This document shows, one piece after another, positions 15,767 to 60,232 of a stretch of DNA of 64,000 nucleotides; positions within the stretch are counted from its first letter, which is position 1, and each line of letters begins with the position of its first letter. Under the pieces are notes generated by a model. It searched no databases. It had not been told where the DNA came from and worked only from the letters and a program-made list of their open reading frames with translations. Position numbers and translations under genes: made by a program. Source of the DNA: Rhabdochlamydiaceae bacterium. GTDB lineage: Bacteria > Chlamydiota > Chlamydiia > Chlamydiales > Rhabdochlamydiaceae. The stretch covers positions 512,001 through 576,000 of the forward strand of contig JAJREF010000001.1 in assembly GCA_047459655.1 (NCBI GenBank), read 5' to 3'.

Positions 15767-15818
15767 AGATCTCCTGGCAAAAATTTCCACCAAGAGAAGA
15801 TAAGGACGTTCTTAACAG

Positions 15819-15915
15819 CTTCCACGCTCCCTCCGCCGGTATTACCCGGATCAGGTCTCTAAGAGTTAGGCATGCGCCCTTTCAGCCACAATTGCTTGCA
15901 GCACCTCTGGTGTTG
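15819..15915 (-). ncRNA. TPP (THI-box) riboswitch
   Basis: The minus strand reads GAGGTGC...GGCTGAAAG...ACCTGATCCGGGTAATACCGGCGGAGGGAG, matching the TPP aptamer core; about 50 nt upstream of the MFS gene. Confidence 0.88.
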
Positions 15916-15957
15916 GAAGGAATTTTAAATGGAAACCTCTTTTATGGGTAGGGATAA

Positions 15958-17255: not shown

Positions 17256-17417
17256 GGAACCTCTGGACAAGTGCTTTGTCGGAAATTGCTGATCAATTTT
17301 TCGAAGACGACGATTTTGGAAAGCGCAGCTAAAATACAGAGTGTTAGCGAGTTCGAAAAATCTAGTATTTGCAAAAACTGGTGGCAAGATTCGGCAAATG
17401 AATTGTCCAGAGGTTCC
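17256..17417 (+). mobile_element. MITE family A, copy 2 (full length, 162 bp)
   Basis: Perfect 15-bp TIRs GGAACCTCTGGACAA / TTGTCCAGAGGTTCC; flanks ttaa and tcaa. Confidence 0.92.
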
Positions 17418-17529: not shown

Positions 17530-17798
17530 TGAGACCGTTGCATAAGTCAGCGTATTTTGAAAAAGTAGCACATTTTGATGAGATTTTGAAATGTGCGTTT
17601 TTACAAACATGATCACTTATGGAACCTCTGGACAAGTGCTTTATCGAAGATTACTGATCAGTTTTTCGAAGACGATGATTTTGGAGAACTTAGCTAACAT
17701 GTAGAATGTTAGAGGATTAGAAAAATCTAGTATTCGCAAAAATTGGGAGCAAGATTCGGCAAATGATTTGTCCAGAAGTTCCTTTTCCAATGGTCTCA
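17530..17798. mobile_element. palindromic element (type D) interrupted by family A copy 3
   Basis: Left end tgagaccgttgcataagt; its complement is split into acttat (17615-17620) and ccaatggtctca (17787-17798); internal hairpin gcacattt/aaatgtgc. Confidence 0.7.
17621..17782 (+). mobile_element. MITE family A, copy 3 (full length, 162 bp)
   Basis: GGAACCTCTGGACAA...TTGTCCAGAAGTTCC; collinear with copy 2. Confidence 0.92.
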
Positions 17799-17818: not shown

Positions 17819-17964
17819 TAGACATCTTGCGTAATTAAGATTCTGTCGATTTTATTGATTATTTGGTCGATTTCCCATTCCAATAGTAAGGGCAATATAT
17901 ACTCTATATTGCCCTTACTATTGGAATGGGAAATCGACAGAATCTTAATTACGCAAGAGGTCTA
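17819..17964. repeat. palindromic element with TAGACATCTTGCG...CGCAAGAGGTCTA ends and a perfect 34-bp inner stem
   Basis: 17866-17899 is the exact reverse complement of 17905-17938; 17825-17852 pairs exactly with 17931-17958. Confidence 0.85.
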
Positions 17965-27341: not shown

Positions 27342-27488
27342 ACATTCTCAAAATCAAGAAACTATTTATTTCTGCCCTTTTTGACATTTCTAAGGCTCTT
27401 TTTTTGGCCATGCGTACTCACATTGTCCCCAAAAAAGGACTTTAGATCTGGACAAAAATCATTAAAAATAAATTTCTAGATAGACTCT
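27342..27488 (-). mobile_element. palindromic element family B, degenerate copy
   Basis: Aligns to the reverse complement of 45781-45921 (ttttttggccatg.gt.ctcaca.tgtcc.caaaaa...aaaatcat.aaaaataaatt...agatagactc). Confidence 0.75.
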
Positions 27489-27748
27489 TCTACCTATATT
27501 TCTTTCGTAACGATCTTTTCTTATTGATGTTATTTTTAATGATTTGCTATTGTTTTCCCTTTACCCGCAACTATGTGGTGCTCCCCTTAGTTTTTACGTG
27601 TTTTATGCTTGCAGAGCGGCTTTCATTCATCTAAGGTTTCCCTTTGATAAATGGCAGAAGATACTCAGTATAAAAACGTTAAAAACAAGCCGTTGGAAGA
27701 AAATCCACCTTAGTTGCGAAATTAGAAACTCAAGGAGAAACCTTTAAC

Positions 27749-29506
27749 ATGCCCAAAAATACAAATGACTGGAGTGAGTGCAACATTATTGATGATGTTG
27801 ACTTCAACGAAGAAGACGCGCAATTATTTAAAAAATTACTAAGCAAGAAAGAGACCGACGAAGGAAAAGGGTCCGTTGCTTCTATGAGCTCAGGGCAGGT
27901 GCTGAAAGGACGTATCGTTGAGATCACTAAAGACTTTATCGTTGTTGATGTAGGGTTAAAATCTGAAGGACTTGTTCCATTAAATGAATTTATTGAAACA
28001 GCAGACCTCTACCTTGGGAAATGAAGTGGAAGTCTTCTTAGACCAAACAGAAGGAGAAGATGGCCAAATCGTTCTCTCTCATGAAAAAGCAAGAAGATTA
28101 CGTCAATGGGAACACATCGTTCACAACTGTCAAGAAGGCTCTATTGTCACTGGAAAAGTGATCCGCAAGGTAAAAGGTGGCTTGATGGTAGATATCGGAA
28201 TGGAAGCTTTCCTCCCTGGCTCCCAAATCGACAACAAGCGCATCAAAAACCTCGATGAGTATCTAGATAAGACGTTTGAATTTAAAATCCTTAAAATCAA
28301 TAGTGACAGAAAAAATGTCGTTGTTTCCCGTAGAGAACTTCTAGAAGAAGAGCGTATCTCGAAGAAAGTTGAAATGTTAGAAAACATCATTGAAGGACAA
28401 GTTCGCACAGGTGTTGTCAAAAACATCACCGATTTTGGAGTTTTCTTGGATCTTGATGGCATCGATGGACTCCTCCACATCACCGATATGACATGGAAGC
28501 GTATCAAACATCCATCTGAAATGGTTAATTTAGGCGATGAAGTGGAAGTTATTGTTCTGAATGTCGACAAAGAAAAAGGTAGAGTTGCTCTAGGAATGAA
28601 ACAAAAAGAGACCAATCCTTGGGAAGAGATCGAGAAAAGATACCTACCTGGAACACATGTAAAAGGTAGAATCGTGAGCCTCGTCCCCTATGGTGCCTTC
28701 ATTGAAATCGAGCCTGGAATCGAAGGATTGATCCACGTTTCTGAGATGTCTTGGACCAAGAGTATTTCTGACCCGAGTGAAATGGTAAAAAAAGGTGATG
28801 AAGTAGAAGCTCTAGTGCTTGGCGTTCAGAAAGAAGAAGGTAAAATCTCGCTAGGAATGAAGCAACTAGGTAAAAATCCTTGGCAAATGAAGTTGAAAAA
28901 AAATATCCTATTGGCAGCAGTGTCGAAGCAGAAATTCGCAACCTCACTAACTACGGAGCTTTTGTCTGAGCTAGAGCCGGGAATCGATGGTCTTATCCAC
29001 ATTTCTGATCTCAGCTGGATTAAAAAAGTATCCCTATCCTTCTGAAGTTTTAAAGAAAGGGGATAAAGTAGAAGCGATTGTTCTATCTATTGACAAAGAT
29101 AGCAAAAAATCACGCTCGGAGTCAAACAACTCAGCCAAAATCCTTGGGAAAACATTGAAAAAGCAGTTCCCGTCGGAACTCTTGTGAAAGGCGTTGTAAC
29201 TAAGATCACTGCTTTTGGAGCTTTTGTTGAGCTTGACAATCGGAATTGAGGCTCTCATTCACGTTACCTAACTCTCCGACCAACCTTTTGGCAAAGTTGA
29301 GGGAAGTGATTTCTAAGGGCCAAGAGATCGTAGCCAAGGTGATTAAAGTCGATCAAGAATACAAAAAAATCTCCCTCTCTATCAAAGAGTATCTTGTTGA
29401 AAAAATAAAGAAAATCACGATGACATCGTAGTTGGCGAGAAGAAAAAACGTACAACCAAGAAGAAAACAAAAGATAAAGAGGAAGAAGGAACAGAGGGTG
29501 AAGTAG
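27749..29506 (+). CDS. rpsA: 30S ribosomal protein S1 (frameshifted; 3' end approximate)
   Basis: Repeated S1 domains ([31 protein letters not shown]). Confidence 0.95.
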
Positions 29507-29537
29507 TTCTCTCTTTTTACTTTTAATAAGGATAAAA

Positions 29538-30826
29538 ATGCACGAGTAAAGACTTGGTCGCCATTTTTGAATATCTAGAGCGTGAAAGGGATTAAGCGTG
29601 ATATCGTCATTAGCGCGATTGAGGAATCTCTTTTAGCTGCTGCGCGCAAAAACATACAAGGTTTAATCAACATATCTGTCAAAGTGAATAACAAGACAGG
29701 AGATATTGAAGTTTTTGCCCAAAAAGAAGCTGTTGAAAAAGTGACAATACCCGAAGAGGAAGTTTCTCCTGAAGAAGCTAGACTTATTAACCCATATGCT
29801 GAAATTGGCGACTGGATAGATATTACATGCACGCCACAAGAGTTTGGAAGAATTGCTGCCCAAACAGCGCGTCAAGTGATATCCCAAAAATTGCGTACAG
29901 CAGAAACGAGACTGTGATTTACGAAGAGTACCGCCATAGAGTCAATGAAATCATCTCAGGAACTGTGAAGCGCATTGTCCGTGGAGCCAACTTAATTGTA
30001 GACCTCGGAAAAGTAGAGGGCATTTTACCTGATCGGTTTTATCCAAAGACAGAAAAATACAACGTGGGAGAACGCGTTCAAGCTCTTTCTTTTGAAGTAA
30101 GAGACACAGAAAACGGGGGGGCAGAAGTCATTTTAAGCCGTAGCCATCCTGACTTCGTAGCGCAGCTTTTCATGTTAGAAGTGCCTGAAATCAATGACGG
30201 TAAAATCACCATAGAACGCATCGTCCGAGATGCAGGTTACAGGACAAAGCTCGCTGTCAAGTCAACCGATCCTAAAATTGATCCTGTTGGCGCTTGTGTA
30301 GGGGTCAGAGGAACAAGAGTGAAGAATATCATTCGAGAACTCAACAATGAGAAGATCGACGTCCTTCCTTTTAACGCAAGATCCTGTTCAGCTATTACAA
30401 AATGCTCTTTCTCCTATTGAGATCAAAAAAATCAATGTCAGTGACGATGGCTCATCTATCTCTATCGTTGTCGAAGATGAACACTACCCTGCTGCGCTCG
30501 GCAAACGGGGAATGAATGCTCGCCTAAATGGCCAACTTATAGGGGCTGATCTACACATCCAGAAAATGACAGATTTCCAAAATGCAATGACATTGGAAAG
30601 ACAACAAATTGCAACAGCTCAAGACCCAAGCTTAGATGAAACACTCCAAGTGGAAGGAATGAGTAACTTGATCATTGAAAGCTTAATCTCTGCGGGCTTT
30701 GATACACCTCGTAAGATTTTAAATGCAACCCCAAAGGAACTGGCAGCTGTTCCTGAGATTAGCTTGAAAATGGCAGATGAAATTTTAGAAAAAGTACGTA
30801 AGAAAAAGGGCTTAAAAGTTGGCTAA
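29538..30826 (+). CDS. nusA: transcription factor NusA (frameshifted)
   Basis: KDLVAIFEYL, FGRIAAQTARQ and DPVGACVGVRGTR. Confidence 0.95.
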
Positions 30827-43796: not shown

Positions 43797-45017
43797 AATA
43801 CCAGGATCAACAATGGGGCTCGGATTCCATGGCAGGTAAATCTCTCCTTTCTCTCCACTGGGTATTTAAAACTCAAAGTCAATCTCACTTCACTTAGATC
43901 TAGGGAATTTTCAAATTCTGCCCCATTAAACATAACAAATACAACTCTTGATTCCCCCCTATTAAGGGATCTAATTCAAATTTTGCTCCCTTATCTTGTA
44001 GAACAACACCTGCACCCCTAACTTCCCATTTACCTAATGGAAACCGTGGAACTGTCAATTCGATTTGAGAAAATGAATCAATCCTCTTACGATAAACCTC
44101 TGTTATCACGTTCCCAACATTTTTTTCATCAGGAACATCGATATATTGTCCTCTAAATCCTACCACATCACTCGCCGCGATTTGTTGCAGAGTTGCCTTG
44201 TTATTTTCTCCATTTATTTTAATTCCAATTACAACTAATTCAGTAGATTGATTAGCAAAGACATCTTTAATTCTATCAAGATTACCTTTAAAAACTGTTC
44301 CAACCCCATCTGTTAATAAAATGGCAGTGGAACGACCCTCTTTCTGTCGACCTTTCATAACAGTAGCTGTTTTATTTAAACCCGCAAGAATATCAGTCGC
44401 TCCATCACATCTTATACCTTCTATTTTTTGTACTACAGCTCTCACTGTATCTGAAGTTAGTCTAGTGCGTTGCAGGAGAACTGTTCCTTTGGTATTAAAT
44501 ACAGTGATAGACAGAAAAAATTTACCAGACTTCTTAGTCTCATTGAGAGCAGATCCCACGATCTGTTTCAATGCTATTTTTACACGCTCTATACGTGATA
44601 CACCATCTATCCGATCATTCATACTATCACTAATATCAACACAAAAATGAAACGTTCCTTGAAAACCCTGTTCTTTTTGTTCGGGAGCATCAATAACAAG
44701 GCGTGCTGTATTGAGCGAACTCTTCATCCTGGCAGAAAGGCCCTGAGGGGATTTCGTCTAATATAATGCACAATTGCCCAAACAACAATAACCGCCGCAC
44801 TTGTGAAACCCCATTTATGATTCGAAACAAAGACCCTTCCTGCTTTGCATACTCCATAAGCATGACGTTGAATAAAAGCACCTGCGTGGGGTAATTGTGC
44901 ACATGCCCAGCTCCAATTCCTTCCAACCCAAGCCCCTCCTTGCGTACATCCTGCACTCACATAATCACCGGCTGTTTGCCAAGCCCAACCAACGTACCTG
45001 TCTACCAAATTGCTCAT
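43779..45017 (-). CDS. von Willebrand factor A domain protein with an N-terminal TM segment (frameshifted)
   Basis: MIDAS VDISDSM, GATDILAGL and ILLTDG; hydrophobic segment in the upstream fragment. Confidence 0.8.
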
Positions 45018-45240
45018 TTTATCCTTCCTGTAACCATGAAAACTATTTTTATAAAAGGCAGGTTATCACAAGCTTCTAAAAACATTAAACTTTATTACAG
45101 CTTACCTTGCCTAATACCCTAATTTTTCCTATTGACCAATGTTTTTTTAAATTGATAATAAATAAGCACTCCTGATAGATTCCTGGTCTCTTCTTATTGA
45201 AAAACGAAGAGACACAAAAATAAAAAAGAGGTTTTTTTAT

Positions 45241-45723
45241 ATGACTCAAATTTTACAAGCTTCACTACTTCGAGATGGACTTAACGCACTACAGATAGGT
45301 GCATTACGCATGCCTACTTTCTTCGCACAAATGACTGCTGCTCTTGCTGTTGGAGAAATTGCTGTCCGTTCCATAAAATCCGGGCTAGATTTCGTTGGAG
45401 TTCCAACTGGTGGAAAGCTAGCTACAAGATTGAGCGAGTGGACTTCTATGACTTATACCCAAAAAAATGATGATGGAGAAGAGGTGAAAGTCAAAGTAAA
45501 CTTCCTAAGACCTTATGAAAAAGTGAGTGCACAACAATTAGCTACTGTCGCTTTAGTTGCTGGCCTGTTTGGAAACGTTGGTGCAACAGCAATTGACTTT
45601 GCTTTTGGCCCAGCTCCTGCAATTTATAATAGAGTACTTAGCTTTTTAGGAAATATTCGCGTCGAAAGCGGTTCGGTACACCCCTTAGTTAGTTACGTTT
45701 CTTCTTTTGTTTATAAAGCATAA
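45241..45723 (+). CDS. hypothetical hydrophobic protein
   Basis: 160-aa ORF with gagg RBS, followed by a terminator hairpin. Confidence 0.65.
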   Translation: MTQILQASLLRDGLNALQIGALRMPTFFAQMTAALAVGEIAVRSIKSGLDFVGVPTGGKLATRLSEWTSMTYTQKNDDGEEVKVKVNFLRPYEKVSAQQLATVALVAGLFGNVGATAIDFAFGPAPAIYNRVLSFLGNIRVESGSVHPLVSYVSSFVYKA

Positions 45724-45738
45724 GCGTATAGTTTAACT

Positions 45739-45775
45739 TCAGGGACTGTTTATTTAAGTCCCTGATTCTTTCTTC
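45739..45775 (+). terminator. intrinsic terminator
   Basis: tcagggact/agtccctga stem followed by ttctttctt. Confidence 0.65.
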
Positions 45776-45780
45776 TGTCA

Positions 45781-45921
45781 TGAGTCTATCTCGAAATTAA
45801 AAAACAATTTATTTTTGATGATTTTCGTTCATGTCTAAAGCTCGTTTTTGTGGACAGTGTGAGCACACATGGCCAAAAAAAGGGCAAAAACAAATATTTT
45901 CTTAATTTCGAGATAGTCTCA
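45781..45921 (+). mobile_element. palindromic element family B
   Basis: 20-bp TIRs tgagtctatctcgaaattaa / ttaatttcgagatagtctca (one mismatch). Confidence 0.82.
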
Positions 45922-45955
45922 TAGATCATACAAATAAATTTCAAAGTGCATTTAA

Positions 45956-46286
45956 ATAACCTCTGGATAAGTGCTTTGTCGGAGATTTCTGATCAGTTTT
46001 TCGAAGACGACAATTTTGAAGAACGCAGCTAACATGGAGAATGTTAGCAAGTTCGAAAAATCTAGTATTCGCAAAAATTGGCGGCAAAATTCGGCAAATG
46101 AATTGTTTGAGACCTTTCTACAACTCTGGCAAATCGAAAAAATCGAAGATTTTTTTGCAAATTTTTGATTTTATATCGAAGACATACTCAATAGAGTAGG
46201 CAAGATATGAAAAATAAAATCTGCGGAAAAAGCGCGATTTTAGCGGTTTACCAGAGTTGTGCAGAGGTCTCTTGCCCAGAGGCTAC
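45956..46286 (+). mobile_element. MITE family A, copy 4, TTAA-flanked and interrupted in its right TIR
   Basis: ttaa|ataacctctggataagtgctttgtcgg...gaattg, resuming at 46272 as ttgcccagaggctac|ttaa. Confidence 0.85.
46109..46271. mobile_element. palindromic element (type C) nested inside family A copy 4
   Basis: gagacctttctacaactctggcaaa pairs with tttaccagagttgtgcagaggtctc; central tactc/gagta hairpin. Confidence 0.8.
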
Positions 46287-46365
46287 TTAACAAAAGGGGG
46301 AACTCTTTGTAAAAAGTTTTTCCTATCTAGGAGATCTCTGCATCACTAGTGAAGCAAAAAAATCT

Positions 46366-47980
46366 TTAAGCACCTGAACGAAGTGGGTTAAAGGATTTCG
46401 ATTTAAAGGATTTCTTAAAACCACCTTTTTTATTAGGAAAGGGTGGTCTTGTTTTTCTTAAAGCGATCTCTTTGTTCCATTGCGTACTTAACAACTCCCT
46501 CTTGTGACTGGAAGTCTCTTTGGACTGGGGTAAAATCTTTATCTGGCGATTTAAAGCTTCTCTCTGAAGATCTAGGCTCAAAACCTCTGTCTCTTGACTT
46601 GAAGCCTCTATCTCTAGGCTGAAAACCTCTGTCTGAAGATCGAGTGTTTCTATCTGGCGGGCTAGAGTCTCTATCCGCATATCTAGATTCTCTATCTGAA
46701 GGTCTAAAACCTCTACCGGAAGATCGTGCATCTCTTTCACGAGGTTTAAAACCTCTACTGGAAGAGCGAGAACCCCTCCCAGAGGATCTAAAGCCTCTTT
46801 CTTCAGAAGGAGCTGAGTTTGTTGAAACAGTCAGTGGAGGAAGGGGGCCTGAAGCAGTTTGTACATTAATTCTTTGGCCTGTAAAACGCTCGATTTGCTT
46901 CACAAGTGACATCTCTTTTGTGTGAGCAAATGTATATGCAATACCTGTAGCTCCAGCTCTTCCTGTTCTACCAATGCGGTGTACATAATCTTGCACATTG
47001 TCTGGTAAATCAAAGTTAATCACATGGCTGATTGCTGGAACATCAATTCCTCTTGCTGCAACATCTGTTGCAACTAAGATTTTGATTTTTCCTTCGCGTA
47101 GGAGTGCCATTGTGCGTGTGCGCTGTCTTTGTTTCATGTCACCATGAAGAGCAGCCGCTTGAAATCCGCCATCCGTCAAATGTCTCTCCAACTTATCTGC
47201 TTGCCGTTTTGTTGCTGTAAAAACAACCACTTGCTGAACAGAAGGATCAACAAGGAGACTCTGCAATAACCTGTATTTATGGTCGATATTAGTAACAGTG
47301 AACAATCTCTGGTCAATTTTTTTCTGAGCAGAAAGATCGATAGCAACGCTGATCTCTACAGGTTTATTCAAAAGACGTTGAGATAATCCTAAAACGCTTC
47401 CTTTAAGGGTAGCAGAAAACATCAATGTCTGACGTGCTTTAGGTGTTGCCTTAGCAATTTGTTCCACGGCATGGATAAAGCCCATATCGAGCATCCGATC
47501 CGCTTCATCAAGGATAAGCACCTCTAATCTTGAAAAATCAACACGCCCTTGTTCCATATGATCGATTAAACGACCCGGTGTGGCTACAAGAATATCAAAG
47601 GGTCGAGAAAGGTTTTTATTCTGCTCAGGATAAGGAGATCCCCCGTAAATACAGACCGTTTTCACAAAAGGAAGGTATTTGGTGTATTTGACGGTCTCTG
47701 TAGCAACTTGCATCGCAAGCTCTCTTGTCGGAACGAGTACTAAAATACGAGGGCCTCTTCCTTTAGAAGGAGAGGGCTCCACAAGACGGTTAAGTGAAGG
47801 AAGCATAAAGGCAGCCGTCTTTCCTGTACCAGTCTGCGCTGCAGCTCTTATATCTAACCCCTTGACAATCTGAGGGATCGCTTGCGCCTGGATCGGTGTA
47901 GCTTCATTATAGCCAAGCTCTTGAAGCGCCTTGAGAATATCTGAATGCAAAAACAAATTTTTAAATGACATATCTTCCAT
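46366..47980 (-). CDS. DEAD-box RNA helicase with a repetitive Arg/Ser/Asp-rich tail (probable late frameshift)
   Basis: AQTGTGKT, PTRELA, DEAD, SAT and HRIGRTGR. Confidence 0.95.
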
Positions 47981-48190
47981 TGATTATAAATGTAATGGGG
48001 CGATTATAAAACAATTGATCTATAAAAAATAGCTTATTCACACAAATTCCAGAAATAAATTAAAGATTTTTTAGATATTTAATCTTGAAGAAAAATCAGA
48101 ACACTCGATTAAATAGACCTTCGATGTAGTAACATTCGGGAAAAATAATAAAGCTGAAACACGTCTTTATTTTTCCGTATGGTATGAGTA

Positions 48191-48219
48191 GAAAAAAGCC
48201 CTCTATTCTAAAGAGGGCC
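48191..48219 (-). terminator. intrinsic terminator of the 48233-48646 gene
   Basis: gccctct/agagggc stem followed by a T run on the minus strand. Confidence 0.65.
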
Positions 48220-48232
48220 ATAAACTAAGATA

Positions 48233-48646
48233 TTAAGGGATGCGCGCTGCAACAGCACATGTTGCTTGAGATAGGCATCTCACAGCCCCATTAACCAAGC
48301 AGCTACTGCTAGCAACTTTATAAGCTATAACACTTATTAAAAATGCCGAGGCGATCTTCTGGCCTAGCTGTTTTGCCGTTTTAGTTGATAGACGCACACC
48401 AACACTATCACTAAAGGCATTTTGGGTTAATGTTGAAAATCCTTTTTTTATCTTTCCTGGCCAGGATTCTGGGAGCCGATCTAATGCACTTTCACATAAA
48501 TAACTCACCCCTATCTTTTCAGCAGCAACATTTATAACTTTTCTAACTATATCGAGCAAATCATCCGCCGCTTTAACTGTGGCATTAACAGCTACATAAG
48601 TAGCAACAACAGCAGCACCTTCGCGAGCAATTGTTCTGATATCCAT
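48233..48646 (-). CDS. hypothetical protein
   Basis: 137-aa ORF with a GGAGG RBS and its own terminator. Confidence 0.65.
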   Translation of the reverse strand: MDIRTIAREGAAVVATYVAVNATVKAADDLLDIVRKVINVAAEKIGVSYLCESALDRLPESWPGKIKKGFSTLTQNAFSDSVGVRLSTKTAKQLGQKIASAFLISVIAYKVASSSCLVNGAVRCLSQATCAVAARIP

Positions 48647-48748
48647 AAAAACCTCCTGTTAAATTTTACTTTCCGATCTCCCTAAGAAATCAGAATTAGA
48701 GCGGATGTTAACAGAAAATGATTTAGATACATACAAAAAAACAGACTC

Positions 48749-50213
48749 TGTTAGCCCAAAATGATAATGTCCTCTTTCTGCTAAATAGAAATGTCCTCTT
48801 TTGAAGATACTGACCTCATTCAAATTTGTTTTTGAAAGGAGGTGAGAGTGAAGGAGTTGATAACTATGAGCAGAAGAGAATTAGAAAGAGTTGAAATGAT
48901 GCGCAATTTAAAAAGAAAAAGCTTTTCCCAGATAGAAGTGGGACAACGTCTGGGGATAACAGCCAGACAAGTTAGACGTTTAAAACAAGCTTACGAACTG
49001 CATGGAGAAGCTGGCTTAGTTTCCAAAAGAGAGGGCAGCCTAGTAATCGCAGGTTAACAGAAGCTTTTAGATCACAAGTCCTAAAGCTGATTTCCGCTCA
49101 TTATGCAGATTATGGCCCTACGTTAGCTCAAGAAAAGTTAGAGGAAAAACATAAGCTTACATTGTCTATAGAGACGCTTAGGAAATGGATGATAGAAGAA
49201 AATATTTGGTCTCCTAAAAAAGCTAAAAAGGCAGTTATCCACCCGATGAGACCAAGAAGGAGTCAGTATGGAGATCTTGTACAAATAGACGGATCTCCCC
49301 ATGACTGGTTTGAAAATAGAGGACCCAGGTGTACCCTTTTAGTATACATTGATGATGCAACTAGTAGACTTGTCGAGCTGTTTTTTTCTCTTGGTGAAAC
49401 AACAGAATCTTATTTTAAAGCGACAAAAAGGTATCTAAAGAGATGTGGAAAACCACTTGCTTTCTACAGCGATAAATATGGAGTTTTTAGAGTCAACCAC
49501 AAAGAAGCTGTATCTGGTAATGGAGTGACAGAGTTTGGAAGAGTCCTAAAAAAACTCGATATCAAGCTCATTTGTGCCAATACACCCCAGGCAAAAGGAA
49601 GAGTTGAAAAAGCCAATCAAACATTGCAAGATCGTTTAGTCAAGGAGATGAGAGAAAAAAATATTTCAACTATTGAAAAGGCAAATGAATGGATTCCCGA
49701 GTTCATAGAGAAGTATAACAAAAAATTTGCCGTAGCTCCTAGAAACGCAGAAGATGCTCATCGAGCTTTAAAACCAGAAGAGAACTTAGAAGAGATTTTC
49801 AGTTACCAGGAAATCCGATGTCTCTCTAAAAACTTAAGCTTCCAATACAAAAACAGTCTTTATCAGATCGATAGTGAAAGATCATCATACACTCTAAGGA
49901 AAGCAAAAGTCATGCTTCTAGAAGATCTCAATGGACGGGTAAGAGTGCTGTATAAGGGCAAGGAGTTAAAATACAAGATATATGGGGAAGAACCGCAAGG
50001 GAAAATTGTGATGTCCAAAGAAATAGATTTAGCACTTAATTGGATAAACAAAAAACCTCAAAAACCTTCAAGGAGTCACCCGTGGAGATAAGAGAAGAGC
50101 TTTTGAAAATGGGTATTTTAGATAAAAAACGGACAAGTCCAATGAAGATCAGAACATCCAAAGAGGACATTTCTAAATTGGAGAAAAGCGGACATTTCTA
50201 TTTTGCGTTGACA
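48749..50213 (+). mobile_element. insertion sequence of the IS1202 family (formerly in ISNCY), 1465 bp, 15-bp target duplication
   Basis: Ends TGT...ACA; repeated aatgtcc/ggacatt boxes in both ends; caaaaaaacagactc at 48734-48748 and 50214-50228. Confidence 0.92.
48842..50091 (+). CDS. DDE transposase with N-terminal HTH (frameshift near 49030)
   Basis: GDLVQIDGSPHDW, YIDDATS, YSDK, PQAKGRVE.ANQTLQDR and C-terminal HPWR. Confidence 0.92.
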
Positions 50214-50291
50214 CAAAAAAACAGACTCTTCTCTTTGCAAATTTACAACTCCTACTTGTATTAAATTATTTTCCGCGCCATTCTTTTTTGT

Positions 50292-51290
50292 ATGATGATA
50301 ACTGTACCATTTATTCGTTTGAGGCGTCTTAGACAACATCCTGTGCTAAGGGAATTAATCCGAGAAACAGATGTGCAGGTTAACGATTTAATTGCTCCGG
50401 TATTTGTTAAGGGAAGTGAAGGAAATAAACAAGCGATTGCATCGATGCCGGGATGTTATCAAATTCCACTCAATTGTTTATTGGAAGAAATTGAGGAAAT
50501 TCAGGCGCTTGGGATCTCTTCTGTTATATTGTTTGGGGTTCCTCCCTATAAAGATCTCTATGGATCGAACGCCTATCATGAACATGGAGTGATCCAACAA
50601 GCCATTAGAATCATCAAAAATGCATCATCTAAGCTGCTTGTGATTTCAGATATCTGCTGTTGTGAGTACACAAATCATGGACATTGTGGCTTCATTAGAG
50701 AAAACAATTCAACCTTTGTAATCGATAATGATAAGACATTAGAGCTGCTGATGAAACAAGCTATTAGTCATGCACAAGCTGGAGCCGATGTGATCGCCCC
50801 TAGTGGAATGATGGATGGGATGGTAAAATCCATCCGTTACGGTTTAGATAGTGCAGGATTTGAAGAAATTCCCATTTTGAGCTACTCCGTTAAATACGAT
50901 TCTTGCTTGTATGGACCTTTTAGATCAGCTGCAGAAGGCGCTCCTGTTTTTGGAGATCGAAGCACCCATTTCATGGATCCTGCCAATAGTAGAGAAGCAC
51001 TGCGTGAGGCCCAGTTAGATATAGATGAAGGGGTCGACATGCTCATGGTCAAACCCGCCCACAGCTATTTAGATGTGATTTACCGTCTAAAAGAAAGCTT
51101 TCCCTCTATCCCCCTAGGAGCCTACCACACAAGTGGTGAGTTTTGCATGATTAAGGCAGCTGCTGAAAAGGGGTGGATAGATGAAAAAAAAGCCGTCTTT
51201 GAAATACTTAGAGGGATGCGAAGAGCTGGCGCTGACTTTATTATAACCTACTACGCTAAAGAATTTGCAAAATGGTTAGCACTGACATAA
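50292..51290 (+). CDS. hemB: delta-aminolevulinic acid dehydratase
   Basis: RLRRLR, Zn-type CCCEYTNHGHC, APSGMMDG and MVKP. Confidence 0.96.
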   Translation: MMITVPFIRLRRLRQHPVLRELIRETDVQVNDLIAPVFVKGSEGNKQAIASMPGCYQIPLNCLLEEIEEIQALGISSVILFGVPPYKDLYGSNAYHEHGVIQQAIRIIKNASSKLLVISDICCCEYTNHGHCGFIRENNSTFVIDNDKTLELLMKQAISHAQAGADVIAPSGMMDGMVKSIRYGLDSAGFEEIPILSYSVKYDSCLYGPFRSAAEGAPVFGDRSTHFMDPANSREALREAQLDIDEGVDMLMVKPAHSYLDVIYRLKESFPSIPLGAYHTSGEFCMIKAAAEKGWIDEKKAVFEILRGMRRAGADFIITYYAKEFAKWLALT

Positions 51291-51353
51291 CTTTTCTTCC
51301 ATTTTTTTAATTGCACCTCTGTCACTCCAAGACCTACAATGCGACTAAGGAAC

Positions 51354-51487
51354 TGGGCAAGAATAATTGCTGCATTTGGACTGCGCCAAAGCCCCGTGGT
51401 TGAGCGATCGTAAGCCACCTAGTATCAGACCGATCGCTCAACCACGGGGCTTTGGCGCAGTCCAAATGCAGCAATTATTCTTGCCCA
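51354..51487. repeat. perfect 57-bp inverted repeat with a 20-nt loop
   Basis: 51354-51410 is the exact reverse complement of 51431-51487. Confidence 0.95.
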
Positions 51488-51732
51488 CTACTATCTATTT
51501 CTCTAAGGTCTTCTTCTGTGTCGATAATAAAGGAGGTACGGTCCTCTTTTTTTACTAATTTTTTAGCTTGAGAAAGAATATATTTATCTAGCAATTTCCC
51601 CACCTTACCCTTAACGAGGATTTCACGAATAAGGGCTCTACGCTTTTTGGCCGACAAAAGGGGGAATAGGAGGTTTTCAGCATTTTATCGGCCATTTAAT
51701 ACCTCTTTTATAAAAGTCAATTTCTTAATATA

Positions 51733-52964
51733 ATGTTTCCCTCTACCACCAACGGACAAATTTTTATGGGCAAACAAACAGAACTCAAAGCTTTATTTTT
51801 GATTGTCACTATTTTCATTGCAGCTTGCATTGAAACAGATATCTACTTGCCCGCTTTTCCAGATATGATGACCTGGTTTGCTGTTTCTGAAAGCGCTATC
51901 CAAGGTCTCCTCACTTGGAACTTTGTAGGAATCTGCATTGCAAGCCCTCTCTATGGGCCTCTTGCCGATGCCTTTGGTCGTAAAAAACCCTTGCTCATCG
52001 CTCTAGGGATGTTTCTAATTGGAAGTCTCATTACAATTTTTGCCACTAACCTCGATCAGATGCTAGCGGGTAGAGTCCTTCAAGGAGTAGGTAGCGGTGG
52101 ATGTTTTACGTTGGGAACAGCGATCATATTTGATGTCTTTCAAAAAGAAAAAGCAGTCCGAGCGCTTAACTCACTTAATATGATCATCCCCCTAATCATG
52201 GCAGGAGCTCCTATATTAGGGGGCTATCTCAACCATGCATTTGGGTTCCGTTCAAATTTTCTTGCCATTGCCATTTTTGTAACAATTGGCCTGATCATAA
52301 CTCTGATCTCCTTTGAAGAGACATTACCTAAAGAGAAACGGATGCCTCTTCAGTTTAAGTCTGTTGTAAGAGATTTTAAGGAAGCTTTCTTGTGCGCCCC
52401 CTTCTGGCAACTTACTTTTATGATCTGCTTAATTTTTGGATCCTATATTGCCTTCCTATCAGGGACCTCTGTTCTCTTTGTGGTGGAGTTTGGGATGAGT
52501 AAATCTATCTTCCCTTTTGTTCAAGCAGCTATCTTGGGTGGCTGGGTAGCAGGAAGTCTTATCTTAAATTCCTCTATTGCTAAATGGGGCATTAAAAAAG
52601 TCAAAAAAATGGGTCTGATGGCATGTGTAGCTGGAGGATTAGAATTAGCGATTGTAACCCTCCTTGCTCCCACAGACGGTTATCTTCTTACGATTGGCAT
52701 GACGGTCTACGCTTTTGGAGCTAATTGGCTCTTTGGGCTGTATTTCCCCGAAAGCATGGCAATCCTCCCCACATCAAAGGTACTGCGGCAAGCCTAATTA
52801 CAAGTGCTCGCTTGCTGTCTGCCGCGCTTATTGTTGGATTAGCAAGTAGCCTTTACAACGGAACCATCTATCCTCTAACAGGGATTGTTGTGGGATCCAT
52901 TTTGATTATGCTTCCCCTACTTCGGATGTATGAAAGCAAAAAAGCTACCGCTCTCTCTCCATAA
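51733..52964 (+). CDS. MFS multidrug efflux transporter, Bcr/CflA family (late frameshift)
   Basis: TDIYLPAFP, YGPLADAFGRK, GRVLQG and EETLP. Confidence 0.88.
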
Positions 52965-53571
52965 ATAGATTTAGTAATTGCTTTTCATACTCTTCTATCG
53001 GGATTAGACCAGCTTCCACGCGCCTTTGAGCCAGGAGTTCTGGATCGCACACAGGATACATCACGAGCTCACCTGCCGCCTCTACCCATTGCGTGCCATA
53101 GACCTGCGGCTCATTTCCGTACATACACACTCTATCCAGTAAATAAGCATAATTGCGAAAGGGGGCCTCTTGTTTATCAACTGCATCTTTCAAAAGAGGT
53201 AAGCACTGTTTTTGAAAATCCAGATCTTGGTGTTGAACTAAAAGCCACATTGCTTCAGCTCCTTCGAGCCCGACAAGTATTATTCCTGGCCAACCAAATT
53301 CTGCAATGATTTCTTTTAGTCTAGGAGCATGTTTTTGATCTATTTCTTGCAGCATGTTCCAATTTCGTTCAGATATAGCAATCTGTCTTACCCTCTGATC
53401 TTCAGCTTGCATCTCCAAAAGCTCTCCTTGTAGAGAAGAATGCTTTGGTTGTGTAAGGGCGCAACAAAGACCAGGAAGCGCCCTATCAAGAATGCCCTTT
53501 GAGCTTTCTGCCTCAGCAGCATACCCCATAAGACATAGACTCATACAAATAACACATAATCTACCCACCAT
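52945..53571 (-). CDS. exported DUF6624-like protein
   Basis: Signal-like N-terminus; EDQRVR, GWPG, AMWLLVQH, AYLLDR and QVYGTQ. Confidence 0.75.
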   Translation of the reverse strand: MVGRLCVICMSLCLMGYAAEAESSKGILDRALPGLCCALTQPKHSSLQGELLEMQAEDQRVRQIAISERNWNMLQEIDQKHAPRLKEIIAEFGWPGIILVGLEGAEAMWLLVQHQDLDFQKQCLPLLKDAVDKQEAPFRNYAYLLDRVCMYGNEPQVYGTQWVEAAGELVMYPVCDPELLAQRRVEAGLIPIEEYEKQLLNLFMERER

Positions 53572-54463
53572 TGGGCCAACACTCCTCATAGGAAAAATCA
53601 AACTCATCGGTAAACCCCGCTTTTTCTTTCATTATTCGCTTGCGCTCGCCCATTTTAGCTCTTTGGTCGATTTCCTGCATCTCTTCTATGGCAAGAAAAA
53701 AATCAGCGATTTCCTTGTTTTCGTGTATGTGTTTCGCTTTTGTACTGCTCGGTAGAGGCATACATAGATGTTGAATAATCCATCTTAGAGCTAATTGTGC
53801 AGGCGTCTTACCATATTTTTTGGCTATTTTCGCAATGAGCGCATCATCACAAATACGTCCTCTGCCGAGTGGGGACCAGGCTTGCACAGCAATACACTTC
53901 TCTTTACAGAGCTTTAGTAGTTCAAAATCACAAAAGTAAGGGTGCATCTCCACTTGAACCCAAGAAATCGGAACTCCTACAGCTAAAGCTTTTTTCAAAT
54001 GGTTAAAAGAGACGTTGCTAAGCCCAATATGGCGGATTTTTTTGTCTTGTCTTAACTCCTCCATAGCACGTAATGTCTTATCAATGGGGACTTGACTATT
54101 GGGCCAATGTATTAAATACGTATCTAAATACTCTATCTGGAGCTGTTCCAACGTCTTTTCTAGATCAAGGCGTACATTTTCTGGCTGCAACATATCATGC
54201 CACACTTTTGAAATGATGTAGACATCACCACGATCTACATCCTTTAATGCTTGTGCAATCGCTTCAAAGTTGGAGTAGCGCGTTGCCGTATCGATGACAC
54301 GATAACCCGCTTCGAGCGCCTCTTTTACAGCTTGTGTGCAGATGTGACCTGTCAATGGATAAGTCCCGAATCCTATCATAGGATAACTCACCCCATCGAT
54401 CTGGCACATCCCACTTTTAGAATCTAATTCAATAGAAGCAGATAAATGCATGCTAGCTATCAT
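53561..54463 (-). CDS. aldo/keto reductase
   Basis: IGFGT, GYRVIDTA.Y, YLIHWP, IGLSN and AWSPLG. Confidence 0.93.
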   Translation of the reverse strand: MIASMHLSASIELDSKSGMCQIDGVSYPMIGFGTYPLTGHICTQAVKEALEAGYRVIDTATRYSNFEAIAQALKDVDRGDVYIISKVWHDMLQPENVRLDLEKTLEQLQIEYLDTYLIHWPNSQVPIDKTLRAMEELRQDKKIRHIGLSNVSFNHLKKALAVGVPISWVQVEMHPYFCDFELLKLCKEKCIAVQAWSPLGRGRICDDALIAKIAKKYGKTPAQLALRWIIQHLCMPLPSSTKAKHIHENKEIADFFLAIEEMQEIDQRAKMGERKRIMKEKAGFTDEFDFSYEECWPNGG

Positions 54464-56075
54464 ACCTCATGAAAAAAATATGAATCTAGATTTAATTCAT
54501 CAAGATTGTCTGTTTGATAACCGATATAGAGATCGGGGCGAATGAGAACAGCCCTGCAGCCTTTAGCTCCATATAGACGGTGGGCTGACCCAGAAGAATC
54601 TTTAAAGCTCTGCACAGTGTGTGACACAAGAGGAAGTCTTCCCTCTTGAAAAATGACGATCGGAATGATGGGGTGAGCTGCAACCTTTTGAAGGATAGCC
54701 GTAAAATTGGGTGCTTCATTCCCTGCAAAAAGGAGTAGATAAAAAGAGGTAGATTTGCGCCAAAGAGCGTACAGGCTAGTAGGCTCATCTTGATGAAGAA
54801 GATAAGCATCTGGCGCTCTAAAACCGCTTTGTGGCCCTACAATAGAGCTTCTAGGATAACAAATACCTATTTGAGAAATTATTTTTACCAGATATCTCTG
54901 CAAAAAGAAATGCGTGTTAAGCAAAATATCGCTGCATTACGAAGAGCGATAGCTACACGGTTTTGCAAGGTGGCAATTTGTGAGGCGATCTCTGTTGCTT
55001 GTAAAAGCTTTTTAGCAACAGAGCGCCTCTCTAAATCATACGTATCCAATAGCTTTTTACCCGCTTGCTTGTTATGCACCAGTGCTAATTTCCAGGCTAG
55101 ATTGAACGCATCTTGCAATCCTGTATTCATCCCCTGCCCTCCAACGGGACTATGGATATGTGCGGCATCACCCGCTAGAAAAACAGATCCTTTCTGATAG
55201 GTCTCTACCATTCGGCTATTGATACAAAAATTTGCACACCAGAGAGGATCTGAAACAAGAACGTAGGAGCCTGTATGCTTGCAAAGAAGCTCTTGGACCT
55301 CTTTAAGTTGAGGCTTTGCTACAATCTGCTCTTTCAATTGGCCGTTAGGAAGAGAGTGACGTTCTTTGAGCAGATTACGACAACGCTCTAGTTGAAAAAT
55401 CAATCGGTAACGCTTTGGCTCAGGAAGAGGGATGGCTGCAAGAGCGCCTATTGCATCTAAAAAAACGAAAAGCTCATCAATAGGATAATCCCAGTGGATA
55501 CGCACGTCAGCGAGTGAAAAAATACCTAAAAGAGGTTTCCCTTCGAACGCAAGGTTGAGCTGCTTGCGAACCTGGCTATGCGCCCCATCACAACCTACAA
55601 CCCACGTTGCTTGAATTGTTTCTTCTTGCCCAGAGGTAGTATGAGCAACAACGACCTCAACATCTTCCTCACGTTGTTTCATCCTCAGAAACTCTACTCC
55701 CCTCTCAATCTTTACTCCAAATGAAATAAGGTACTGCTCGAGGATCTCTTCTGTTTTTACTTGTTCAAGACTTAAGATAAAAGGGTAGGACGAATCAAGG
55801 GTGTCAAAAGAAATTCTACCTAATTTATGAAACGAACAGATCGGGTTGCCCACTTTTAAACGCAGACCTTCTGCTAAAAAAGCCTCTGCAAAACCCAAGT
55901 GTTCAAAGATCTCCATCGTCCGGGCTTGTATGGCCACCGCCCGTGACTGGTCTTGACAAGCAACACCTTTATCGATAATTCTACAGCTAAGACCATAGCG
56001 CGCAACTTCTGCTGCCATCAGCATGCCTGTTGGACCTGCTCCAACAATCAGCACATCAACGCGATTATCCTTCAT
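54460..56075 (-). CDS. FAD-dependent monooxygenase, aromatic hydroxylase family (frameshifted)
   Basis: VGAGPTG, VGCDGAHSQVR, GDAAHIHSPVGGQGMNTGLQDA and C-terminal LIRPD. Confidence 0.92.
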
Positions 56076-56281
56076 AAGAATACACCCTACGCCATTCAAA
56101 AAAACGTATTAACGCATAGCGTATAGATAAACTTTTTAGCTTATTTTCTCAAGAAAAGTAGAATCCTAACCACCAAAGAAAGCTAAAGGTGGGTTGTTTT
56201 ATGTACGAGAATTGGGAGCAATCGACTCGCCTCTTCGGTTATGCTATTCTCAAAATTTTATCAGGATACGGACACTAGAAC

Positions 56282-57255
56282 ATGGCAAATGGAGAAATCA
56301 TCCTATACACCACAGAGGATGGGACAGCTTCCGTTCAGCCCAGAACCCAAGACGGCACTGTTTGGCTAACCCAGGCCGAAATCGCTGAGCTCTTCCAAAC
56401 AACTCCTCAAAATACAACTTCAAATCTAAGAGCTATTTACACTGATAACGAGCTGGTTGAAGCCGCAACTTGTAAGGAACGCTTACAAGTTCAATCTGAA
56501 TGGAAAAGAACGATTCAACGAAATCTCAAATTTTACAATCTTAGTGCAATACTTGCGATAGGCTACCGCATTCGCTCTCCTCAGCAACCAGGCTCAACTA
56601 TTTTTTAAAAAAGTTCAAAACAAAATGCTCTGGGCTACAACCCATAAGACGGCGGCCGAATTGATTTTAGAGCGATCAGATTTTAAACTGCCCAATATGG
56701 GGCTGACAAGTTGTGAGGGACACCGCGTCCGTCAGCAAGACGTAACCATCACCAAAAATTATCTCACTCAAGTGGAACTGGAAGAACTTAACCTAATTGT
56801 TGTCATGTATTTGGATTACGCGGAGCTACAAGCAAAACAGCGAAAGACGATCACGATGAGAGAATGGGAGGAAAAGTTGGATACCTTCCTTAGCTTTAAC
56901 GAAAAAGATCTCTTAAGGAGTCTCTGGATAAGTGCTTTGTCGGAGATTGCTGATCAGTTTTTCGAAGACGACGATTTTGGAAAGCGCAGCTAACATGTAG
57001 AATGTTAGAGAGTTCGAAAAATCTAGTATTCGCAAAAATTGGCGGCAAGATTTGGCAAATGACTTGTCCAGAGGTTCCTTAAGCCACGCAGGTAAAATAT
57101 CTGCCCAGGTAGCAGAAAAGCTCTCCCTTGAGCGCTATTCAGAATTTAATCAAAAGCGCCTTAAGGAAGAGAGACTGCGAGCTGATGAAGAAGATGTTGC
57201 TCTTCTTGAAGCAATCCGAGAAAAAGCTAACCCAAGCGAAGCTCCTGCGGATTAA
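56282..57255 (+). pseudogene. RhuM-family (virulence protein) pseudogene
   Basis: VWLTQAEIAELF, YNL.AI.AIGYR, VQNKM, NMGLTS and KNYL; apparent internal deletion near 56580 and a MITE insertion at 56917. Confidence 0.82.
56917..57078 (+). mobile_element. MITE family A, copy 5 (162 bp) with TTAA target duplication
   Basis: ttaa at 56913-56916 and 57079-57082; removing the element restores the host reading frame. Confidence 0.93.
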
Positions 57256-57528
57256 AAGAAGCTGGGACTTTTTACAAAAATTGTTTTTTAGATTTGTCCA
57301 GCAGCTGATGTTTCCCTTTGCTGTATTGGCTAGCCCAAGACCTCTGAACAACAGTCCCTGCTTCGGGATCGATTTTGAATAAAGCCCGCCAGTCAGGAAT
57401 TATCGAGCAAACGGATTGTCATGAACAAGTAGATAAAAACTTTTATATTATGGAGGTAGTTGCAAAACTCAGGTTCAGTGAGAGAACCGTTCTTAACGAT
57501 GCTGGATTTTAAGAATCGTCCAAGAGAA

Positions 57529-57610
57529 TGGGGGCGGTGTGACTCGAACACACGAAACCCGAAGGTGGGGGATTTACAGTCCCCTGCAATTGCCACTATG
57601 CGACACCCCC
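57529..57610 (-). tRNA. tRNA-Tyr (GTA)
   Basis: Cloverleaf GGGGGTG...GGGGA-CTGTAAA-TCCCC, long variable arm, GTGTG-TTCGAGT-CACAC. Confidence 0.95.
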
Positions 57611-57623
57611 CAAACAGAAAAAA

Positions 57624-57695
57624 TGCTGGCGAAAGGACTTGAACCCTCAACCGTCCGCTTACAAGGCGGATGCTCTACCATTGAGCTACACCAGC
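57624..57695 (-). tRNA. tRNA-Thr (TGT)
   Basis: GCTGGTGTAGCTCAATGGTAGAGC, TCCGC-CTTGTAA-GCGGA and TTCAAGT T-loop. Confidence 0.95.
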
Positions 57696-57753
57696 AAAAA
57701 GGAAAGAACCTTATAACAAATGATTCCTTATTGCTCAAGATTTTAAGACGGTA

Positions 57754-57966
57754 TTACATGTTAAAATGTTTTTCGTCAGGAGGAACTTCAGGCAGTTTAG
57801 GCTTAACAGGTGTAACATTTTGTTGAAATAGGGAAGAGATTTTGTTGGAGCTTGTCAAAACCTGGGCAGATCCGAGCAAGGACTTTGTAGTTTTTGATTC
57901 ACAACATTTTTTAAATTTCTTTCCTGACCCACAAGGGCATGGATCATTTCTACCTGGCTTTGACAT
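57754..57966 (-). CDS. small SEC-C motif protein
   Basis: [19 protein letters not shown]. Confidence 0.88.
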
Positions 57967-58026
57967 GAGACCTCTTTTGGGAAACACTATACCGCTAAAA
58001 AGAAATATCGGGTAGAATTTTTTCCC

Positions 58027-58770
58027 ATGAGCAGCCTACCAATTGCAAAACCTCCATGGACAACATTAGGAAAAAAGCTTGAAAGCATGTGCCGTAAAGC
58101 ACTCTATCAATTCAATCTTTTAGATGAATCAGGCAAGGTTGCTGTTGCTCTAAGCGGTGGTAAGGATAGTCTTGCACTTCTCTATCTTCTGAAGGCCATT
58201 TCAGGCAGGGGTTTCCCTGTGCTGGATATCCATGCTATTCATGTGTCTGGCGAGTTCTCTTGCGGAGCCTCTGTCAGCGAACAATTTCTGCGTCCTATCT
58301 GTGAAGCTCTCGGGGTTAATTTTATTTTGAAACATTCAACACAAACAAGAGAAAATTTAGCCTGTTACAGCTGCTCAAGAGAGAGAAGGAAGCTAATTTT
58401 TGAAGCGGCTAAAGAAGTGGGTATACATACGATTGCTTTTGGGCACCATAGAGACGATAGCATTGAAACCCTTTTGCTGAATCTTTTACACAAAGCAGAG
58501 TTTGCGGCTAACCTCCCAAAAGTACACATGCATGACTATGGTATAACCATTATTAGGCCTTTAATTTTCATTGCAGAAAAAGAGATTATCTCTTTTGCTA
58601 AGCTCCATGGATTTGCAAGAATCACCTGTCAATGCCCCGTAGGACAAATCTCCATGCGTAAAAAAGTCAAAGATCTATTGCACTCTGTAGAGGAGATTTT
58701 TCCCAATACAAGAGAGAATCTTTCTCAAGCTAGCTTGCATTACGGATCTACTAAAGCTGCGCAAAAATAA
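58027..58770 (+). CDS. ttcA: tRNA 2-thiocytidine biosynthesis protein, TtcA family
   Basis: SGGKDS, CYSCSR, GHHRDD, IIRPL and CQCP. Confidence 0.88.
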
Positions 58771-58804
58771 AGCATTTTATTTCTAAAAGTGTTAAGAATG
58801 TTAT

Positions 58805-60232
58805 ATGTATACACAAGAACTGATTTCCATCGGTTGTTACTTCCTATTGCTGCTGGCAATTGGATATTTCTCTTATCAAAAACACATGTCTGCAACCGGC
58901 TTTATCATCGGCAACCGCTCGATGAACTGTTGGCTAACGGCACTGGCTGCCCATGCTAGTGATATGAGTAGCTGGCTTGTCATGGCCTATCCTGCTGCAG
59001 TATTTTCTAAAGGCGTGATCAGTGCGTGGACAGCAATTGGCCTTACCACGTGCATGTACTTGAACTGGCGTATTATTGCGCCTAAAATCAGAGTTGCTAC
59101 AGAAAAGTTCAACAGCATGACATTTTCTTCTTTTTTTGAGAGCAGGTTTAAAGACACTTCTGGACGGATACGGGTTTTTTCTGCGATTGTTCTGATCGTA
59201 TTTTATACGATTTACATTTCAGCGGGGCTAACAACACTTGGAGACAATCTAGAAGTCCTCTTCCAATTAAAGTATTCAATCGGTGTTTTGATAGGACTTG
59301 TGGTTGTCATCCCTTATGTGTTCTCAGGTGGTTATCTGACGCTTGCCTGGATTGATCTTTTTCAAGGCTTATTTTTGATGTGCGTCATTATTTTTATTCC
59401 CCTCTATATGATCCCAAAGATAGGTGGATGGGGTGCCATCTCAGAAAATATAACGATCAATCATCTCACGTCTCGATTGATTCCTGATTTTTCCCAAGCC
59501 ACCATCGTTTCAATTATTTCCTTAACATTTGGATGGGGACTTGGTTATTTTGGTCAACCACACATTGTCACTAAGTTCATGGGGATTAAAAAGGTTTCTG
59601 ACATCCCAACTTCTAAATGGATTGGAATGACATGGATGGTTCTCTCACTCGGAGCAGCCACCTTGATTGGGCTTGTAGGAATTGCCTTTTTTAAAGGACA
59701 TTTGGATAATCCCGAACTTGTCCTTGTTGAAATGGTCAAGTTATCGTTTTCTCCTATTATTTTGGGCCTTGTGTTATGCGCTATCATTGCAACAACAATT
59801 AATGCTATGAGCTCTCAAATCCTTGTTTTATCCTCAAGCTTGGCTGAAGATTTGTACAAAAAACTGTGGAGAAAGCACGCCTCCTCTCGAGAAGTTCTTT
59901 TAGTCTCGCGCCTTGGGATCATCCTCGTTGCCTGTGTAGCTTTTCTCATTGCCTTCCGAAAGACCAATACCATCTATCAACTTGTTTTATATGCTTGGTC
60001 AGGGATTGGATCTGCTTTTGGCCCTCTTGTTATCTTATCGCTCTATTACAAAAAAGCTAATAAATATGGCGCCTGGGCTGGAATTTTAATCGGAGGATCT
60101 GTGTCTGCTGTTTGGCCCCTTTTTAACCATTTATTCCCTATCGGCCCCCTAATTCCTGGTTTTTTTGCAAGTATGCTATCCATTTTGTGGGTATCACATC
60201 TCACAAGACACAAACTCTCTCATATGTTATGA
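58805..60232 (+). CDS. putP: sodium/proline symporter (SSS family)
   Basis: ASDMSSW, WGLGYFGQPHI and YAWSGIGSAFGP. Confidence 0.9.
   Translation: MYTQELISIGCYFLLLLAIGYFSYQKHMSATGFIIGNRSMNCWLTALAAHASDMSSWLVMAYPAAVFSKGVISAWTAIGLTTCMYLNWRIIAPKIRVATEKFNSMTFSSFFESRFKDTSGRIRVFSAIVLIVFYTIYISAGLTTLGDNLEVLFQLKYSIGVLIGLVVVIPYVFSGGYLTLAWIDLFQGLFLMCVIIFIPLYMIPKIGGWGAISENITINHLTSRLIPDFSQATIVSIISLTFGWGLGYFGQPHIVTKFMGIKKVSDIPTSKWIGMTWMVLSLGAATLIGLVGIAFFKGHLDNPELVLVEMVKLSFSPIILGLVLCAIIATTINAMSSQILVLSSSLAEDLYKKLWRKHASSREVLLVSRLGIILVACVAFLIAFRKTNTIYQLVLYAWSGIGSAFGPLVILSLYYKKANKYGAWAGILIGGSVSAVWPLFNHLFPIGPLIPGFFASMLSILWVSHLTRHKLSHML

Follow-up and report, generated by a model that had tools for sequence, protein, structure and literature searches.

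A 162-bp hairpin MITE with 4-bp TTAA-type target duplications and a probable IS5-family partner in a Rhabdochlamydiaceae genome

Described MITEs of 100–200 bp with long stem-loops include RUP/IS630-Spn1, Correia/NEMIS, YPAL/RU-2 (about 168 bp), and bcr1 (about 155 bp), so lengths near 160 bp are not unusual in themselves (PMC2229807; PMC3184786). For RUP, the driving transposase was inferred from matching TIRs, and both RUP and Correia elements have TA termini or targets (PMC2229807; PMC3184786). Rickettsia palindromic elements (RPEs) comprise several families of full-length hairpins of about 100–160 bp in an obligate intracellular bacterium (PMC2229807; PMC3184786; PMC10969869). In Cardinium cOegib, also intracellular, the high-copy element MITECca01 coexists with its cognate IS and is mostly intergenic, often within mobile elements and seldom in genes; it is IS982-derived, about 240 bp long, argued to descend from the IS, and reported in one strain only (PMC9769881). 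In Chlamydiota, IS expansion has been proposed as a driver of genome reduction (PMC9723776), though the words MITE, miniature, and palindrom do not occur in the available portion of that article. The string "chlamyd" is likewise missing from the available portions of PMC10969869 and of the main text of PMC11602168, whose census of 183,232 genomes may contain such sequences, and no description of MITEs or palindromic elements in chlamydiae was found in the partly accessible literature.

The element described here, family A, is an IS5-group MITE, a well-known kind of element, in a Rhabdochlamydiaceae-like host, and such an element appears not to have been described previously in chlamydiae. As with RUP, its likely driver is indicated by matching TIRs, but in place of TA termini and targets there are a target of 4 bp and a partner of the IS5 family. 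It shares with MITECca01 a high copy number, an intracellular host, and a cognate IS elsewhere in the genome, whereas its likely driver belongs to the IS5 family, its interior, a full-length hairpin, bears no relation to that IS, and the family spans genera. It also resembles the RPEs in form, a comparison made by description only, but here a cognate transposase could be identified. The host genome (labelled G000; other G numbers denote comparison genomes) is a 1.61-Mb assembly of five contigs that is 81.6% complete, and the window is the 64,000-nucleotide stretch C1:512001–576000. The first-pass annotation of this window had set its repeats against the repeat-poor genomes of Chlamydiaceae. 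This contrast was misplaced, given that the host is Rhabdochlamydiaceae-like and that transposable elements make up about 23% of a published Rhabdochlamydia genome (PMC9997750). Chlamydial names among 120 listed HtrA homologues comprise three Rhabdochlamydiaceae, one Chlamydiales, one Chlamydiota, and no Chlamydiaceae.

The five copies of family A recognized in the first-pass annotation are real and lie on the + strand at the positions it gave. Copy 1 (937–1086; 150 bp) has lost about 12 bp on the left, corresponding to the left TIR; after it come TTAG and part of a family G element (about 1090–1195). Copy 2 (17256–17417) is 162 bp long with flanks TTAA/TCAA. Copy 3 (17621–17782; 162 bp; flanks TTAT/TTTT) sits inside a family C hairpin element (17531–17797), in its right TIR; the host element has an internal deletion and 5-bp flanks one base apart. 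Copy 4 (45956–46286; flanks TTAA/TTAA) is interrupted near its right end, where the right TIR hosts a family B hairpin element of 163 bp (46109–46271) that brings the total to 331 bp. Copy 5 (56917–57078) is a 162-bp element within a RhuM-family gene. The reported length of 162 bp thus holds for the three uninterrupted copies, 2, 3, and 5. Both 15-bp TIRs of copy 2 are perfect, but the left TIR of copy 5 has three mismatches and the right TIR of copy 3 has one, and the common orientation is a property of the window alone, since 40 of 61 copies in the genome are on the + strand and 21 on the − strand. The window also holds a family D element (474–637), a family G element (17820–17963), and, on the − strand at 15810–15918, a TPP riboswitch scoring above the Rfam gathering threshold. 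It does contain a transposase, within one copy (about 48750–50210) of an ISNCY element that is unrelated to the MITE; this element of about 1466 bp is present in about 10 copies, scores over the NF033594 cut-off, and is exemplified by G000:C1:58307–59773. Another multicopy IS, a DDE_Tnp_1 element of about 1485 bp, occurs about seven times (G000:C1:225540–227022).

One insertion interrupts the RhuM-family pseudogene (PF13310; 56282–57255, + strand). Copy 5 lies between two TTAA sequences, at 56913–56916 and 57079–57082, and the earlier observation that removing the element with one TTAA joins the two RhuM fragments is supported by homologues and by a public contig. Of 120 homologues examined, 119 matched both pieces, and in 119 the codons on either side of copy 5 align with a single residue. 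The search for an empty rhuM site yielded one 151-base contig of run X2 that joins 56911 to 57078 and so skips exactly 166 bp, in support of the right-hand TTAA; this single contig has a depth of 2 and 43 letters on its short side, and over 108 aligned letters it differs at one further place. Since element and duplication amount to 166 bp, the insertion shifts the reading frame. The gene also bears a second lesion upstream, where about 70 codons, roughly residues 100–170 of the closest homologue, are missing and the frame changes. Because run X1 differs by one base within a nearby T-run, the reading frame at this point is uncertain. A sigma-70 promoter scan across copy 5 returned 0 sites. A second run X2 contig, of depth 5 and with 31 letters on its shorter side, links the right end of the element (57079) to position 51346; it may mark an insertion that the assembly lacks at that site, or it could be a repeat artefact.

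Beyond the window, the first-pass annotation had suggested on the order of a hundred copies, which is borne out. A BLASTN search of the whole 1.61-Mb genome with three copies as queries produced 84 merged loci, and a scan for TIRs of 15–17 bp found 71 pairs, of which the 61 that lie 159–164 bp apart are treated as full-length copies. These occupy about 0.6% of the genome, are spread over four of the five contigs, and share a mean pairwise identity of 91%, with three identical pairs. Their flanking 4-mers are identical in 39 copies (shuffle mean 20.2, maximum 29 in 10,000) and differ by at most one mismatch in 55, while 22 are without a perfect duplication. In 13 copies the exact duplication is something other than TTAA (shuffle mean 1.2, maximum 6), such as TCAA, TAAA, TTTA, ATAA, TTAT, or CTAA. 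The 13 are not all independent, as four of them share a single site within family C elements, where they lie in both orientations; uninterrupted family C copies carry the 4-mer of that site once.

These flanks decide between two readings of the target. The first-pass annotation had considered a TA duplication with 1-bp-longer TIRs, and thus an IS630-type MITE, to fit equally well, and TA does stand at the required place on both sides in 38 of 61 copies. At TTAA sites, including that in rhuM, the TA reading is inseparable from the 4-bp model. Genome-wide it fails: of the 13 non-TTAA duplications, six lack TA where it would be required and seven break the longer TIR. Therefore, the target duplication of family A is 4 bp, with TTAA preferred, in keeping with the YTAR-like target first suggested. 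As the element with matching ends also encodes an IS5-family transposase, an IS630-type origin is very improbable and was rejected. G follows TTAA at 46 of 106 non-tandem ends, against a background of 19%, and 16 of 122 element ends adjoin another family A copy. The TTAAG-biased target resembles the end of the element itself, which fits the formation of tandem arrays.

By crude ORF calls, 50 of the 61 copies are intergenic, although 72% of 1500 sampled TTAA sites fall in ORFs. Among the remaining 11 copies, seven overlap the end of an ORF, one is flanked by long open frames on both sides, and three lie inside ORFs of 113–129 codons, two of which span an adjacent repeat element and none of which is identified as a gene. 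The end of another element is found within 60 bp of 22 of the 61 copies. Purifying selection has probably left mostly these intergenic, tandem, and nested copies. Family A thus has the attributes of a MITE, being shorter than 500 bp, devoid of a transposase gene, bounded by TIRs and a duplication, multicopy, dispersed, and mainly intergenic. RPEs, in contrast, often lie in-frame within genes (PMC10969869), and no such in-frame insert in a recognisable gene was seen among the 61 copies, whose insertion shifts the frame. One copy at G000:C5:54560–54721 (L005:1501–1662) splits a frame resembling a pentapeptide-repeat protein into flanking frames of 82 and 117 codons.

Further copies were found in other Chlamydiae as well, as the first-pass annotation had proposed to check. 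A G000 copy used as query matched 2 of 61 relatives (G000 and G006) but neither of two drafts from the same genus (180 and 80 contigs). A longer query against 129 genomes of the family added G137 and G071 among the matches listed, and in a sample of 400 genomes of the order 10 had a match, including full-length copies in G340, a member of another family. An exact 32-base pattern was found three times in a single MAG of the GTDB set and in three metagenome contigs, and a plasmid collection held no match to the element. With a composite query, 50 of the 129 family genomes matched, mostly via family G among the matches listed, and family D matched seven of the 129.

The assembly itself is imperfect. 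Indel errors are frequent, and ribosomal protein S1 (window 27400–29900) is broken across several frames. A PP-loop gene (window 6722–7467) is likewise in several frames. The sequencing run covering most of the window derives from a lake-water metagenome, no RNA run being among those listed for the stretch, which bears on expression in neither direction. Run X1 differs from the assembly by single bases at five places within 44500–59000. Consequently, element lengths and gene context are approximate, and pseudogene calls in the window need care. Such errors might lead one to regard the repeats as an assembly artefact or a product of chance, yet the copies diverge (mean identity 91%) and have distinct duplicated flanks, the run X1 contigs stacked on copy 5 reach a summed depth of 171 against about 5 in adjoining bins, and the element is also present in other genomes and in metagenomes. 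The likelihood of an artefact is therefore negligible.

As stated in the first-pass annotation, the window holds no matching transposase. An IS5-family element bounded by the same kind of TIR is found elsewhere in the same genome, at C3:6644–7825. This 1182-bp element has related TIRs and the domains DUF772 and DDE_Tnp_1, and it scores 294.6 bits against the NCBIfam IS5 model NF033581 (cut-off 140); the scores in the IS5 family test were 294.6, 320, and 324.5 bits. A second IS5 model run over G000 gave no additional match above its cut-off. DUF772, the GG ends, and the 4-bp duplication would place the partner in the IS5 subgroup. It is flanked by TTAA/TTTA, and its ORF is frameshifted near codon 41. 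The same frameshift is present in a 586-bp deletion derivative (C3:54550–55135; flanks TTAA/TTAA). An intact relative exists in G003, of the same family and another genus, as a 1180-bp element with 79% DNA identity, a 318-aa ORF, and TTAA/TTAA flanks. In its transposase, P0242, D141, D218, and E269 are candidate catalytic residues in view of IS5 motifs. A 318-aa homologue (P0001; 95% identity) is present in the protein collection. The partner lies in a mobile-element cluster (G000:C3:3062–9652) together with the IS of about 1485 bp, a DDE remnant, a family B element, and an ISNCY element.

The ends connect the MITE to this IS. Among the 61 copies, 54 left ends and 56 right ends match the right-end 17-mer of the IS with at most two mismatches, and the best MITE end is identical to the IS right end over 18 of 18 bp. 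When the left end of the IS is taken as reference, only one left and two right MITE ends match. Genome-wide there are 141 sites matching the right-end 17-mer, against 0–1 for five shuffled 17-mers. In G006, a subfamily has TIRs of the IS left-end type at both element ends. The partner conforms to the IS5 family in its size of about 1.2 kb, its single 318-aa ORF, its GG ends, and its 4-bp TTAA target, and the MITE agrees with the family in ends and target; it differs in having no transposase, in carrying the right end twice, and in tolerating targets such as ATAA, TAAA, TCAA, and TTAT, which depart from the YTAR duplicated by E. coli IS5 (NF033581; PMC5009759).

Thus, the 162-bp hairpin element duplicates 4-bp TTAA-type sites and is likely moved in trans by an IS5-family DDE transposase sharing its ends, a link that is suggested by the shared ends and target. 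In the proposed mechanism, the transposase would bind both copies of the IS right end carried by the MITE, the element would insert at TTAA-like sites, and the 4 bp would be duplicated. Whether this strain still mobilizes it is uncertain, because the sole full IS copy in the 82%-complete assembly is frameshifted. The IS DNA matched three of 129 family genomes, one of them over 42 bp only. None of five other genomes carrying the element or its core (G006, G137, G071, G340, G174) has a match over the NF033581 cut-off, and the 160 contigs of G003, which holds the intact IS, gave no match to the MITE. A regular-expression search for the ends of three distant IS5 homologues (L064–L066) found nothing reliable, though it also missed the known ends of L034.

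A MITE of this kind would usually be explained as a plain internal-deletion derivative of its IS, as with the Cardinium MITE from ISCca4. The common ends would be accounted for, and the 586-bp element demonstrates that true deletion derivatives arise in this genome. However, a deletion would leave one left and one right end, and family A has the right end of the IS at both sides. Its interior also has no alignment to the IS (longest exact match 9 bp; best E = 0.55), and the same core occurs under unrelated ends in other chlamydiae. We consider a deletion origin distinctly unlikely, and the right-end-twice structure and unrelated interior rule out the IS at C3:6644–7825 as the source. The MITE may instead have originated when a pre-existing hairpin scaffold of about 162 bp gained IS ends.

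The self-complementarity noted within the element extends over its whole length, for copy 2 with its flanks folds as one rod of −66.2 kcal/mol (z = −7.55), a value that none of 200 shuffles equalled. In an analysis of covariation, 96% of cells were paired, and 20 of 62 pairs had changed on both sides among 18 distinct sequences from four genomes. None of 500 shuffles was as high, and controls in which the pairing was slid were 30–53% paired, although relatedness and self-correction of the palindrome may inflate the count. On the strand defined by the core, the 61 copies contain 310 G-T against 72 A-C pairs in a strand-neutral alignment, and 11 divergent representatives contain 48 against 9. 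Variants at paired sites comprise 10 G-T and 19 A-C among singletons, and 20 and 11 among those in at least three copies (Fisher p = 0.038). This hints that a one-strand fold was selected in the copies that spread, the lineages not being independent.

Both the two-sided changes and the excess of G-T pairs would be expected if the element persisted chiefly for a regulatory role of its RNA structure in the host, such as a hairpin at mRNA ends or an RNase III site, with mobility secondary, and MITE hairpins have been reported to influence neighbouring mRNAs (PMC2229807). Against such a role, the positions of the copies are lineage-specific, variation is equal at paired and unpaired positions (0.053 and 0.059), and copies do not favour the gaps between convergent genes (8 of the 50 intergenic ones); moreover, self-correction of palindromes and shared ancestry also yield covariation. 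We regard a primarily regulatory element as unlikely and retain the mobile hairpin as the better description. No copy matched an Rfam family at the gathering threshold, and copies 2 and 3 had no match at E ≤ 1.

Beyond what the first-pass annotation noted, family A is one of about 13 palindromic repeat families in the genome, which are often nested or adjacent and ten of which have full-length forms of 161–164 bp. The families differ in their ends and duplications, with 5 bp in seven of eight family C elements and 3 bp in six of seven of family I; the tallies for other families are 5 of 11 (B), 5 of 14 (D), 3 of 4 (K), and 3 of 3 (F). The interiors of families D, E, I, K, and L are homologous (z of about 4–13 against palindrome-preserving shuffles), but homology of family A with B or C is weak (z 1.8–2.9) and is not claimed. 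Inverted repeats in the genome peak in size at 160–174 bp (48 of 142), a peak dominated by family A and so not independent evidence for convergence in length. Outside a few long pairs (854 and 1405 bp), a search for cognate transposases of families B–M found no transposase-sized element with their ends. The ends of families F and G (G000:C1:420903–421065; C5:195229–195392) may resemble those of RPEs.

In other chlamydiae, the core of family A is found under different ends. In G287 (L090) the element measures 162 bp, its ends being of the family C type and its duplication 5 bp; in G015 (L091) it also measures 162 bp but has a third type of end; and in G174 (L087/L095) it measures 161–162 bp. 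G340 (L085/L094) has the core with IS5-type ends and 4-bp duplications, as do G000 and G006. Across G000, G006, G340, G287, and G015 the length stays within 161–163 bp. The core under other ends amounts to one or two copies per genome and to short matches (E 3e-6 to 4e-4), which suggests end-swapping short of proof. It is possible, and is put forward here tentatively, that environmental chlamydiae harbor a modular hairpin element in which a conserved fold of about 162 bp, selected on one strand, switches transposases by exchanging both ends together; families D, E, I, K, and L would likewise have a second core in common under different ends and duplications.

As a type of element, family A is ordinary. 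For Chlamydiota it is an unusually complete case of a MITE, with the element, its target rule, an empty allele, and a cognate IS5-family transposase, and since an intact natural copy of the transposase exists, mobilization is directly testable. If confirmed, one hairpin length and one core under several ends would alter the usual picture in which MITEs originate by deletion from a parent IS. If the modular element is real, its scaffold could outlive any single IS by passing between enzymes, and its constant length and fold would serve a function in transposition or survival.
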